In this document: positions 18,819 through 26,329 of the stretch, piece after piece
How positions within the stretch are numbered: position 1 is the stretch's first letter
Layout of the letters: each line of letters begins with the position of its first letter
Assembly (NCBI RefSeq): GCF_003334305.1
Contig: NZ_QOWS01000011.1
DNA length: 64,000 bases
Reading direction: 5' to 3' (one strand)
Origin: Escherichia coli
GTDB lineage: Bacteria; Pseudomonadota; Gammaproteobacteria; Enterobacterales; Enterobacteriaceae
The notes under the pieces: generated by a model
What the model was told of the DNA's origin: nothing
What the model saw: the letters and a program-made list of their open reading frames with translations, nothing else
The model's database searches: none
Made by a program: the position numbers and the translations under genes

Positions 18819-20710
<1,892 letters not shown>

Positions 20711-20724
20711 CTCCGGAAATGCTC

Positions 20725-21393
20725 ATGCAAGAAAGTATACAACTGGTTATTGATTCCTTGCCGTTCCTGCTGAAAGGGGCTGGGTATACGCTGCAACTCA
20801 GTATCGGCGGCATGTTTTTTGGCTTACTGCTAGGGTTTATTCTCGCGCTGATGCGCCTTTCGCCAATCTGGCCCGTGCGCTGGCTGGCGCGTTTTTATAT
20901 CTCTATTTTTCGTGGTACGCCACTCATCGCACAACTGTTTATGATCTATTACGGCTTGCCGCAGTTTGGCATCGAACTAGATCCCATTCCGTCAGCAATG
21001 ATTGGTCTGTCGCTAAACACTGCCGCCTATGCTGCCGAAACGCTGCGTGCCGCCATTTCTTCTATTGATAAAGGTCAGTGGGAAGCTGCTGCCAGTATTG
21101 GTATGACGCCGTGGCAGACCATGCGTCGCGCGATTTTGCCACAGGCGGCGCGGGTGGCGTTGCCGCCGCTGTCGAACAGCTTTATCAGCCTGGTAAAAGA
21201 TACGTCGCTGGCCGCGACAATCCAGGTACCGGAGCTGTTCCGTCAGGCGCAGTTGATTACCTCGCGTACGCTGGAGGTGTTCACCATGTATCTGGCGGCT
21301 TCGCTCATCTACTGGATCATGGCGACAGTGTTATCGACGTTGCAGAACCATTTTGAGAATCAACTTAATCGCCAGGAGAGAGAACCAAAATGA
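20725..21393 (+). CDS. tcyL: cystine ABC transporter permease TcyL (222 aa)
   Basis: Polar-amino-acid ABC permease with EAA-like loop; overlaps tcyN start. Confidence 0.85.
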   Translation: MQESIQLVIDSLPFLLKGAGYTLQLSIGGMFFGLLLGFILALMRLSPIWPVRWLARFYISIFRGTPLIAQLFMIYYGLPQFGIELDPIPSAMIGLSLNTAAYAAETLRAAISSIDKGQWEAAASIGMTPWQTMRRAILPQAARVALPPLSNSFISLVKDTSLAATIQVPELFRQAQLITSRTLEVFTMYLAASLIYWIMATVLSTLQNHFENQLNRQEREPK

Positions 21394-22142
21394 GTGCCAT
21401 TGAAGTTAAGAACCTGGTGAAAAAATTCCACGGTCAGACGGTGCTGCACGGTATCGACCTTGAGGTGAAGCCTGGCGAAGTAGTGGCAATTATCGGTCCG
21501 AGTGGTTCCGGCAAAACCACGTTGCTACGCAGCATAAATCTGCTGGAACAACCGGAAGCGGGAACCATCACCGTTGGCGATATCACTATTGATACTGCAC
21601 GTTCATTAAGTCAGCAAAAATCGCTGATTCGCCAGTTGCGTCAGCACGTCGGGTTTGTCTTCCAGAACTTTAATCTGTTTCCGCATCGTACGGTGCTGGA
21701 AAACATTATTGAAGGGCCGGTGATCGTCAAAGGCGAACCGAAAGAAGAGGCCACGGCGCGCGCTCGCGAGCTGCTGGCGAAAGTTGGGCTGGCCGGTAAA
21801 GAAACCAGTTATCCACGTCGTTTGTCTGGCGGTCAACAGCAGCGCGTTGCGATTGCGCGTGCTCTGGCAATGCGTCCTGAAGTGATTTTGTTTGATGAGC
21901 CAACGTCGGCGCTGGATCCAGAGCTGGTGGGCGAAGTCCTGAACACCATTCGTCAGCTGGCGCAGGAAAAGCGCACGATGGTGATTGTGACGCACGAAAT
22001 GAGCTTTGCCCGGGATGTTGCGGACCGGGCGATTTTTATGGACCAGGGGCGGATAGTCGAGCAGGGGGTAGCAAAAGCGTTATTTGCCGATCCTCAGCAG
22101 CCTCGCACCCGCCAGTTCCTCGAGAAGTTTCTGCTGCAATAA
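21390..22142 (+). CDS. tcyN: cystine ABC transporter ATP-binding protein TcyN (250 aa)
   Basis: Walker A GPSGSGKTT, ABC signature LSGGQQQR, Walker B ILFDEPTSALD. Confidence 0.9.
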   Translation: MSAIEVKNLVKKFHGQTVLHGIDLEVKPGEVVAIIGPSGSGKTTLLRSINLLEQPEAGTITVGDITIDTARSLSQQKSLIRQLRQHVGFVFQNFNLFPHRTVLENIIEGPVIVKGEPKEEATARARELLAKVGLAGKETSYPRRLSGGQQQRVAIARALAMRPEVILFDEPTSALDPELVGEVLNTIRQLAQEKRTMVIVTHEMSFARDVADRAIFMDQGRIVEQGVAKALFADPQQPRTRQFLEKFLLQ

Positions 22143-22371
22143 TAAGAAAAAATCAGCCCCGACGATTCACCAGTCGGGGCGGTGCGCCACTTCAAACGTG
22201 ATAAAACTGCTTAACAAATCAGCATAACTCATTAATAACATAAGAGAATGCGATGGCTTGCAAAAGTAATTCATTGCCTGAATAATATAAATTATATATA
22301 AATCTTATTTATGTGATAGTTTGAATTATCATTATAAATGATACTCACTCTCAGGGGCGTTGCGGTTTACT

Positions 22372-23094
22372 ATGCAGGATACGGATTTTTTCAGCTGGCT
22401 TCGCACGATGCTGTTGCGTTTTCAGAGGATGGAGGCCGCAGAAGAGGTCTACCATGAAATAGAGCTTCAGGCTCAGCAGCTGGAGTACGATTACTATTCG
22501 TTATGTGTTCGCCACCCGGTACCATTCACGCGACCTAAAGTGGCTTTCTACACCAATTACCCTGAGTCGTGGGTTAGTTATTATCAGGCAAAAAATTTTC
22601 TCGCAATTGATCCTGTGCTGAACCCTGAAAACTTTAGTCAGGGCCATTTAATGTGGAATGATGACTTATTCAGCGAAGCACAGCCGTTATGGGAAGCTGC
22701 GCGCGCACATGGTTTACGCCGCGGTGTCACTCAGTATTTAATGCTGCCAAATCGGGCGCTGGGCTTTTTGTCCTTTTCCCGTTGCAGCACGCGCGAAATA
22801 CCCATTCTTAGTGATGAACTGCAATTAAAAATGCAGTTACTGGTGCGCGAAAGTCTGATGGCTCTAATGCGTTTAAATGATGAAATAGTGATGACGCCAG
22901 AGATGAATTTCAGCAAGCGCGAAAAAGAAATTTTGAAATGGACGGCGGAAGGGAAGACATCAGCAGAGATAGCGATGATTTTGTCAATCTCTGAGAATAC
23001 GGTCAATTTCCATCAGAAAAACATGCAGAAAAAAATCAATGCACCGAATAAGACCCAGGTGGCCTGTTACGCGGCCGCTACTGGCTTAATTTGA
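22372..23094 (+). CDS. sdiA: LuxR-family quorum-sensing regulator SdiA (240 aa)
   Basis: Translation MQDTDFFSWLRTMLLRF... with autoinducer-binding domain and C-terminal LuxR HTH. Confidence 0.9.
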   Translation: MQDTDFFSWLRTMLLRFQRMEAAEEVYHEIELQAQQLEYDYYSLCVRHPVPFTRPKVAFYTNYPESWVSYYQAKNFLAIDPVLNPENFSQGHLMWNDDLFSEAQPLWEAARAHGLRRGVTQYLMLPNRALGFLSFSRCSTREIPILSDELQLKMQLLVRESLMALMRLNDEIVMTPEMNFSKREKEILKWTAEGKTSAEIAMILSISENTVNFHQKNMQKKINAPNKTQVACYAAATGLI

Positions 23095-23121
23095 TCGCTT
23101 TTCTTTCTGCGTGCCAGATGC

Positions 23122-23158
23122 AAAAACCGGCTGAAAGACACGCTCTCAGCCGGTTTTA
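23122..23158. terminator. bidirectional intrinsic terminator between convergent sdiA and yecF
   Basis: AAAACCGGCTGA ... TCAGCCGGTTTT: a 12 bp stem flanked by an A-run on one side and a T-run on the other. Confidence 0.6.
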
Positions 23159-23160
23159 TA

Positions 23161-23385
23161 TTACTGACGGTAGGCTTGTTTAATTTGCTTAACCGTTTTG
23201 GAAAATACTGCAGCCTGGGTTTCGTCTTCGATCAGCGCAAGCTGTTTTTCCATCTTTAACATCACGCGGCCCGCGTCAGCTTGTCCCATCGCCTGCAGCA
23301 TCAGCGTCAGCATCGCTTTCAGGCAGGAGACTTCATTTGCCAGTTCTTGATTATTCTCGGCAGTAGAAAAATCAGGCGTACTCAT
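23161..23385 (-). CDS. yecF: DUF2594-family protein YecF (74 aa)
   Basis: ORF translation [35 protein letters not shown]...; position between sdiA and uvrY. Confidence 0.8.
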
Positions 23386-23843
23386 TTATTTTCCTCGTCA
23401 TGTTGCAATGAAAATTTGCGGTGAAAAATGTTAAGGCGGCGGAGTATACCATAAGCTTTGCTAAAAATAGCAGTGGTTGTTTTTTGAGCGTGGTATCGGC
23501 AGTGCTATAAAATACGTTAATATAATGACCAATAAATATTTTTATCATGAATGTTTTTTGCCCGTATTGTTCGGGTTAATTAATGTTACATATTCAGCGG
23601 GATGATTTTCATTTTTGCTGAATAAAGTCAATTTTTGTCACATTTCATCGTAGGGCTTACTGTGAAACGATCCGGTAAGCCGTTGGTGACGGGCGTGACC
23701 ATAACTGTGGACAATCGAATTTACAAAAACGAGAGAAAAATCGAATACCCACCATTTTTAACGTTTCAAAGTTGCAATAAAAACCGCTAATATACGAATG
23801 ACTAACTATCAGTAGCGTTATCCCTATTTCTGGAGATATTCCT

Positions 23844-24500
23844 TTGATCAACGTTCTACTTGTTGATGACCACGAACTGGTGCGCGCAGGGATACGACGC
23901 ATTCTGGAAGATATAAAGGGTATAAAAGTCGTCGGTGAGGCATCGTGCGGTGAAGACGCCGTTAAGTGGTGCCGGGCAAATGCCGTTGACGTGGTGCTAA
24001 TGGACATGAGTATGCCGGGCATTGGCGGTCTTGAGGCGACGCGTAAAATCGCGCGTTCCACAGCTGATGTCAAAATCATCATGCTTACTGTCCATACAGA
24101 AAACCCTTTACCAGCGAAAGTCATGCAGGCCGGTGCTGCGGGCTACCTCAGCAAAGGCGCGGCTCCGCAGGAAGTCGTGAGTGCGATCCGTTCTGTCTAT
24201 TCAGGGCAGCGTTACATTGCTTCTGACATCGCTCAACAAATGGCGTTAAGCCAGATCGAACCAGAAAAAACAGAAAGCCCATTTGCCAGTTTGTCTGAAC
24301 GTGAATTGCAGATTATGCTGATGATCACCAAGGGCCAGAAGGTCAATGAGATCTCAGAACAGCTCAATCTCAGTCCGAAAACGGTGAACAGCTACCGCTA
24401 TCGTATGTTCAGTAAACTAAACATTCATGGCGATGTTGAGCTGACTCACCTGGCAATTCGCCATGGTCTGTGTAATGCGGAGACATTATCAAGTCAGTGA
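23844..24500 (+). CDS. uvrY: response regulator UvrY (BarA partner; 218 aa, TTG start)
   Basis: Receiver domain ([12 protein letters not shown]…) plus LuxR-type HTH; stop overlaps the uvrC start (GTGA). Confidence 0.9.
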
Positions 24501-26329
24501 GTGATCAGTTTGACGCAAAAGCGTTTTTAAAAACCGTAACCAGCCAGCCAGGCGTTTATCGCATGTACGATGCTGGTGGTACGGTTATCTATGTCGGCAA
24601 AGCGAAAGACCTGAAAAAACGGCTTTCCAGCTATTTCCGTAGCAACCTCGCTTCGCGCAAAACCGAAGCGCTGGTCGCCCAGATCCAGCAAATTGATGTA
24701 ACGGTTACTCATACAGAAACCGAAGCGCTGTTGCTGGAACACAACTACATCAAACTCTATCAGCCGCGTTACAACGTTTTGCTACGCGATGATAAATCTT
24801 ATCCTTTTATCTTCCTGAGTGGCGATACCCACCCGCGTCTGGCGATGCATCGTGGTGCGAAGCATGCCAAAGGTGAATATTTCGGCCCGTTCCCGAATGG
24901 CTATGCCGTACGTGAAACACTGGCGTTACTGCAAAAGATATTCCCCATTCGCCAGTGCGAAAATAGTGTTTATCGCAATCGCTCGCGTCCGTGTCTGCAA
25001 TATCAGATAGGGCGCTGTCTGGGGCCGTGCGTTGAAGGACTGGTGAGTGAAGAAGAATACGCTCAGCAGGTCGAGTATGTGCGCTTGTTTTTGTCTGGCA
25101 AAGATGATCAGGTGCTTACGCAACTCATTAGTCGTATGGAAACTGCAAGTCAAAATCTGGAGTTTGAAGAAGCGGCGCGGATTCGCGACCAAATTCAGGC
25201 GGTGCGACGTGTCACCGAAAAACAGTTTGTTTCCAATACCGGCGACGACCTTGACGTTATTGGAGTGGCGTTCGATGCGGGTATGGCTTGTGTCCACGTA
25301 TTGTTCATTCGTCAGGGCAAAGTGCTCGGCAGCCGCAGCTATTTCCCGAAAGTGCCTGGCGGTACGGAACTGAGCGAGGTGGTGGAAACCTTCGTAGGTC
25401 AGTTCTATTTACAAGGCAGCCAGATGCGCACCTTACCGGGTGAGATCCTGCTCGATTTTAATCTTAGCGATAAAACGCTGCTCGCTGATTCCCTTTCAGA
25501 ACTGGCGGGACGCAAGATTAATGTTCAAACCAAACCTCGTGGCGATAGAGCGCGTTATCTGAAACTCGCGCGCACCAATGCGGCGACGGCCTTAACCAGC
25601 AAACTTTCGCAGCAATCTACCGTTCACCAGCGGCTGACCGCGCTTGCCAGCGTGTTGAAATTGCCGGAAGTGAAGCGGATGGAGTGCTTTGACATCAGCC
25701 ATACCATGGGTGAACAAACCGTCGCTTCCTGTGTGGTGTTTGATGCTAACGGCCCGCTGCGTGCGGAGTATCGGCGCTATAACATTACTGGCATCACGCC
25801 GGGCGATGATTATGCGGCGATGAATCAGGTGCTGCGTCGGCGTTATGGTAAAGCCATTGACGACAGTAAGATCCCGGATGTGATCCTTATCGACGGCGGC
25901 AAAGGCCAGCTTGCGCAGGCGAAAAATGTCTTCGCCGAACTGGATGTCTCATGGGATAAAAATCATCCGCTGCTACTTGGCGTTGCCAAAGGAGCAGATA
26001 GGAAGGCTGGGCTGGAAACGCTGTTCTTTGAGCCGGAAGGTGAGGGATTCAGTTTGCCGCCAGATTCTCCCGCGCTGCATGTTATCCAGCATATTCGTGA
26101 TGAATCTCACGATCACGCGATTGGTGGGCACCGTAAGAAACGGGCGAAGGTCAAAAATACCAGTTCCCTGGAAACCATTGAAGGCGTCGGGCCAAAACGT
26201 CGGCAAATGTTGTTGAAATATATGGGCGGTTTGCAAGGTTTACGTAACGCCAGCGTTGAGGAAATTGCAAAAGTGCCGGGTATTTCGCAAGGTCTGGCAG
26301 AAAAGATCTTCTGGTCGTTGAAACATTGA
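24497..26329 (+). CDS. uvrC: excinuclease ABC subunit C UvrC (610 aa, GTG start)
   Basis: GIY-YIG N-terminal domain (…[24 protein letters not shown]…) and C-terminal helix-hairpin-helix. Confidence 0.95.

Follow-up and report, generated by a model that had tools for sequence, protein, structure and literature searches.

A hairpin downstream of tcyN in Escherichia coli is very probably the terminator of the small RNA gene sdsN

Between tcyN and sdiA, the window (the whole stretch of 64,000 nucleotides of Escherichia coli DNA analysed here, from contig NZ_QOWS01000011.1 of assembly GCF_003334305.1) carries a GC-rich hairpin at 22156-22180 which, together with its tail UGAUUUUUU, is very probably the Rho-independent terminator of sdsN. 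The annotated 3' end of the SdsN RNA falls on the last U of this tail, which assigns the hairpin to sdsN as its terminator. The SdsN terminator as such is already known, since SdsN is an annotated sRNA of the reference genome; what our analysis corrects is the view of the tcyN-sdiA gap, which is not empty and holds a convergent sRNA gene. The element sets 3' ends on both strands, and it is a canonical terminator for sdsN only.

Sequence and folding of the hairpin

The tcyN coding sequence (cystine ABC transporter ATPase; 21390-22142, plus strand, from the ORF and the RefSeq annotation; convergent with sdsN) ends with the stop codon TAA at 22140-22142, right after which a second TAA follows, and the stem of the hairpin begins 14 nt past the last base of the stop codon. 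The hairpin is a perfect, GC-rich inverted repeat of 8 bp, whose plus-strand arms, GCCCCGAC at 22156-22163 and GTCGGGGC at 22173-22180, enclose a loop of 9 nt, GATTCACCA, at 22164-22172. Directly before the stem, the plus strand reads AAGAAAAAATCA (22144-22155); 3' of the stem it reads GGTGCGCCACTTC, where a T-run is absent, and T occupies one of the ten positions of the plus-strand tail, GGTGCGCCAC. On the minus strand, the strand of sdsN, the stem is formed by GCCCCGAC and GUCGGGGC (8 bp, of which seven are G-C) and is followed by TGATTTTTTCTT; the T-run UGAUUUUUU, at 22155-22147, exists on this strand only. The minus strand accordingly presents the make-up of a canonical intrinsic terminator, a GC-rich stem-loop with a U-rich tract within a few nucleotides, and on the plus strand, that of tcyN, the U-tract after the stem is missing.

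Folds of either strand give the hairpin as the centroid structure, at about -16.7 to -17.6 kcal/mol, and the 48-nt plus-strand context of the hairpin is more stable than all of 200 shuffled sequences (200/200; z = -3.6). Both strands of the 64-kb window were also scanned for stems of 8 perfectly paired bp that contain 6 or more G/C, enclose 3-10 nt of loop and are followed by 10 nt of which 6 or more are T. Three sites were found, the hairpin beside tcyN being the sole one on the minus strand, against 0.1 such sites expected from first-order Markov sequences of the same composition as the window; the terminator-like motif is well beyond chance. A standard terminator scan with a loop limit of 8 nt missed the full stem because the loop has 9 nt.

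The sdsN gene between tcyN and sdiA

The ORFs around the hairpin are dcyD, tcyL, tcyN, sdiA, yecF (minus strand), uvrY and uvrC, and the synteny of the window is the dcyD-tcyL-tcyN-gap-sdiA order of E. coli. Of 5426 complete E. coli genomes, 5376 have a match to the 321 nt around the hairpin, and the match lies between tcyN and sdiA. The RefSeq annotation of MG1655 lists an ncRNA gene, sdsN (b4719, "small regulatory RNA SdsN"), at 1996921-1997057, transcribed in the opposite direction to tcyN and sdiA, and the minus strand of the window aligns with MG1655 gap-free at 98% identity (K-12 coordinate = 22142 + 1997062 - window coordinate). Mapped by this alignment, b4719, the SdsN137 isoform of 137 nt, runs from 22283 to 22147 on the minus strand. 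It is identical to K-12 at 130 of the 137 positions, the 5' 85 nt being identical throughout, and its annotated 3' end, at 22147, coincides with the final U of UGAUUUUUU and is 9 nt away from the stem; the gene in the window is the sdsN of the reference annotation. The earlier note had described from the letters an 8-bp GC stem at 22156-22180, 14 nt after tcyN, and a U-rich tail on the minus strand only, both of which are borne out by sequence and folds. Its suggestion that the hairpin might end an intergenic minus-strand transcript coming from the sdiA upstream region also holds, that transcript being SdsN, and the note was wrong to see no gene upstream on the minus strand, because sdsN is there.

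The additional 5' part that sets SdsN178, the longer isoform, apart would cover 22284-22324 on the minus strand, to judge from the isoform names and the common 3' end. Two TATAAT -10 hexamers are present on the minus strand. The first, at 22291-22296, lies at -13 to -8 from the SdsN137 start and is identical to K-12; the second, at 22331-22336, would belong to SdsN178, as it lies at -12 to -7 from the predicted start at 22324. Both sdsN promoter regions of the window are identical to those of K-12, and SdsN is presumably expressed in the window strain as it is in K-12. The promoters are situated, on the opposite strand, in the region upstream of the sdiA coding sequence (22372-23094, plus strand, from the ORF and RefSeq). 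The mechanical ORF list has sdiA start from a TTG at 22360, 12 nt before the annotated ATG at 22372 (MQDTDFF...), which is an artefact of choosing the first start codon.

An Rfam scan of 20000-25000 with E values up to 10 returned no family over the hairpin site, so the identification rests on the RefSeq annotation and the alignment. A coding interpretation of the region was rejected. The candidate is a 35-aa ORF with an ATG start at 22274-22167 on the minus strand, inside SdsN137 and with its stop in the terminator loop, which is complete in E. coli and in one cryptic clade; its start codon is lost in one Escherichia species, premature stops are found in two others (E. albertii is among the affected species), and its conservation has no codon-like pattern. 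No conserved ORF was found on the minus strand across the sdsN region, and it appears unlikely from the compared sequences that the 35-aa ORF is coding.

In Hfq-dependent sRNAs, the U-tail of the terminator is the presumed Hfq-binding 3' end. The sRNAs SdsN137 and SdsN178 were reportedly characterised in E. coli K-12 by Hao, Updegrove, Livingston and Storz in 2016 (NAR 44:6935). A passage of PMC5736990 on Hao et al. 2016 attributes SdsN137 and SdsN178 to two RpoS-dependent promoters and one common terminator. In passages of PMC9262595, SdsN is treated as a set of Hfq-dependent and RpoS-dependent sRNA isoforms and as a mainly stationary-phase RNA, with SdsN137 repressing narP, and nfsA and hmpA are named as further targets, in connection with protection against nitrofurans, in passages of PMC8139620 and PMC7004380.

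3' ends mapped in K-12

In the TRS study of 3' termini of E. coli MG1655 (PMC10687069), a peak labelled "sdsN Primary" is located at 1997053-1997062 on the K-12 plus strand, with its dominant position at 1997056 or 1997058 and 6-8 U. This peak converts to 22151-22142 on the minus strand of the window, and minus-strand 3' ends near 22145-22152, which the earlier note had named as the signal to look for, are thus present in K-12. A second peak, "tcyN Primary", is located by the same study at 1997013-1997021/23 on the K-12 minus strand (dominant 1997015, 3 U). Carried over by alignment, its equivalent region in the window is 22181-22190 on the plus strand, where there is no U-tract, and the dominant 3' end corresponds to about 22189, some 9 nt past the stem. 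The K-12 3' ends of both strands (1997015 minus, 1997056/58 plus) flank one hairpin between convergent units. Both termini were detected in exponential-phase samples, and the signal of the sdsN peak (0.94-0.98) is higher than that of the tcyN peak (0.81-0.85) (PMC10687069). The earlier note had left a choice between a tcyN terminator without a U-tract and an antisense or intergenic transcript ending at the hairpin; with the K-12 TRS ends on both strands each alternative stands, tcyN indeed using a 3' end without a U-tract, and only the assumption that one excludes the other has to be dropped.

In the curated Term-seq data of Adams et al. 2021, no 3' end is listed at the hairpin on either strand, which is probably due to their thresholds and to low expression in those conditions. 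Supplementary file 2 of the same work has no Rho-termination region at the hairpin, and the SMRT-Cappable-seq supplements do not mention the genes of the sdsN/tcyN region. A further TRS signal is an antisense 3' terminus inside tcyN, at 1997199-1997206 on the K-12 plus strand, or about window 22000 (PMC10687069). It comes after a GCCCGG...CCGGGC hairpin (about 21996-22035, minus strand); the distance from the SdsN terminator, which lies upstream, is about 147 nt, and transcription of sdsN that has run past its terminator may be the source.

The tcyN gene points towards sdsN, so that its mRNA too carries the palindrome of the sdsN terminator at its end. The hairpin might be chiefly a plus-strand element, the 3'-end structure of the tcyN (dcyD-tcyLN) mRNA, with an incidental U-run on the minus strand; it would act either as a terminator that lacks a U-tract, or, where Rho has stopped transcription further downstream, by halting 3'-5' exonucleases. 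The K-12 tcyN terminus, which has 3 U and lies about 9 nt beyond the stem, agrees with such a function, and so does the finding of Dar and Sorek 2018 that Rho-dependent transcripts end just past stable stem-loops without U-tracts, which guard against PNPase and RNase II. However, the annotated sdsN 3' end and the stronger TRS peak are located exactly on the T-run, and we regard a chiefly plus-strand element as highly unlikely. The plus-strand role is real, but it is additional to the minus-strand role and no replacement for it.

Hardly credible is a bidirectional terminator that would work by programmed head-on collisions of the polymerases on tcyN and sdsN, the stem-loop fixing the collision point and the U-tract being the main determinant on neither strand: tcyN and sdsN do converge on one hairpin with K-12 3' ends flanking both of its sides, Wang et al. 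(bioRxiv 10.1101/2022.10.23.513370) describe precise bidirectional termination from convergent collisions and a nascent stem-loop, and the nearby sdiA/yecF pair has a classic bidirectional terminator, yet the hairpin after tcyN is asymmetric, with its U-run on one side, in contrast to the A- and T-runs that border the sdiA/yecF element left and right, and SdsN is reported to be mainly a stationary-phase RNA, although the sdsN and tcyN termini both appear in exponential-phase samples. For the 3' end of tcyN without a U-tract, two mechanisms seem plausible, namely Rho together with an exonuclease-blocking stem-loop, or polymerase collision.

Conservation and phylogenetic distribution

Species-representative genomes were scanned with a degenerate pattern for the TcyN C-terminus, which gave 120 loci; 89 Enterobacterales tcyN sequences, the window included, end TcyN-like (TRQFLEKFxxx-stop). 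A strong hairpin lies 2-16 nt past the tcyN stop in most of the Enterobacteriaceae sampled, including genera without SdsN, and the stems are unrelated from genus to genus. A T-run on the plus strand occurs in a few loci, for example in Pantoea, in a Pluralibacter MAG and in Enterobacter sp. CC120223. The A-run before the stem is confined to Escherichia loci, save for Erwinia oleae, where an A-rich spacer (ATAATAATAA) precedes an unrelated stem. In Salmonella (L058, L063) and Citrobacter (e.g. L002, L017), the post-tcyN hairpin is strong, the stems are unrelated and a U-tract is found in neither orientation; Salmonella has a T-run before the stem on the plus strand.

The combination of the SdsN core with this hairpin and its upstream A-run is found among the 89 loci in Escherichia only (six other species representatives and the window). 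By nhmmer, the SdsN137 core was detected at six Escherichia loci with E <= 4e-23, the best E value among the other tcyN loci being 0.26, and the homology of the SdsN core to K-12 SdsN137 is supported by E = 2e-30. The presence of the sRNA body coincides with minus-strand terminator polarity, which gives independent support for the U-run belonging to sdsN. The wide occurrence of a post-tcyN hairpin, also in genera lacking SdsN, would suit an element that serves chiefly the tcyN mRNA, but such an element leaves unexplained a T-run that is non-coding, invariant in Escherichia and present only beside the SdsN core.

Among the seven Escherichia sequences, the stem is 91% paired, the RNA core is conserved and the T-run is essentially invariant, and the loop and the 5' linker differ widely from sequence to sequence. 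The stem contains one compensatory change from A:U to G:C, which with seven Escherichia sequences only is not above shuffles. Two single stem variants, forming G-U in one orientation and A-C in the other, indicate opposite strands and cancel out.

Searches outside Escherichia with blastn and nhmmer --max found no SdsN homology beyond the first ~33 nt of SdsN178. These nucleotides, the beginning of the predicted SdsN178 extension (22292-22324; plus strand TTATATATAAATCTTATTTATGTGATAGTTTGA), are the sole part of the sdsN region with a conserved counterpart in other genera, at about 81-85% in Salmonella, Klebsiella, Leclercia, Kluyvera, Raoultella and Citrobacter. They are probably a conserved sdiA promoter/operator element, which the longer SdsN isoform would overlap in antisense.

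The window allele of sdsN

Seven substitutions separate the 137-nt SdsN of the window from that of K-12, six in the linker 5' of the stem, where they cluster in 18 nt (22181-22198), and one in the loop at 22172; elsewhere, the intergenic alignment (281 nt) shows hardly any difference from K-12. As a result of the substitutions, the stem has 8 bp in the window versus 10 bp in K-12. The fold of the 137-nt RNA is weaker in the window, with z = -0.8 versus -2.7 in K-12. With the 321-nt query, no more than 221 of the 5376 E. coli genomes match the allele of the window at an identity of at least 99%.

Proposed model and origin of SdsN

We propose that polymerase starts upstream of sdiA, at either of the two TATAAT promoters there, so that SdsN137 would begin at 22283 and SdsN178 at about 22324, and that transcription would proceed leftwards, towards tcyN. 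The GC stem would then form, the polymerase would pause on the U-run and the RNA would be released at about 22147, with 4 nt left before the tcyN stop. Stem and U-tail would give a stable 3' end typical of Hfq-binding sRNAs, the role of Hfq at this end being a presumed one, and SdsN137 would, as described in the literature, repress nfsA, hmpA and narP by base pairing. On the tcyN mRNA, the palindrome would mark a 3' end without a U-tract about 9 nt downstream.

The old position of the hairpin, together with an SdsN body and a minus-strand T-run that are confined to Escherichia, makes it possible that SdsN was born by exaptation, a proposal that we make tentatively and hold to be rather doubtful: transcription from new promoters upstream of sdiA would have run from behind into a hairpin that already stood at the 3' end of tcyN, the U-tract would afterwards have changed its polarity in favour of the young sRNA, and tcyN would have been left with a U-less 3' end, made by exonuclease trimming or by polymerase collision. 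A canonical sRNA and an mRNA without a U-tract here end at one asymmetric hairpin, and the locus offers a simple natural test case for the origin of U-less mRNA 3' ends beside convergent sRNA genes.

Comparison with known systems

The tcyN side of the element is similar to the U-less 3'-end stem-loops of Rho-dependent transcripts, in that the steady-state tcyN 3' end directly follows a stable stem-loop; it differs in that no Rho region is listed at tcyN (Adams et al. 2021). With bidirectional terminators such as that of sdiA/yecF, the hairpin has in common that one palindrome separates convergent units and that 3' ends have been mapped on either strand. A symmetric bidirectional terminator has an A-run upstream and a T-run downstream, whereas here the A-run is present on the tcyN side only. 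The symmetric element of sdiA/yecF itself is located about 1 kb away, at about 23121-23165 of the window (AAAACCGGCTGA...TCAGCCGGTTTT), and TRS 3' ends are mapped there on both K-12 strands, at 1996039 (minus) and 1996083 (plus) (PMC10687069).

On the sdsN side, UGAUUUUUU and its stem resemble the canonical Rho-independent terminators of Hfq sRNAs in the GC-rich stem, the U6 run and the 3' end 9 nt past the stem, and deviate from them in a rather long loop (9 nt) and in the G and A that interrupt the start of the tail. The first two bases of the tail (U, G) are absorbed into the longer stem of the K-12 terminator. The sdsN gene of K-12 differs from that of the window by 7 substitutions in 137 nt and by its stem of 10 bp in place of 8 bp, and both share the position in the sdiA-tcyN gap on the opposite strand, the promoter regions, the first 85 nt, the terminator stem and the U-run.
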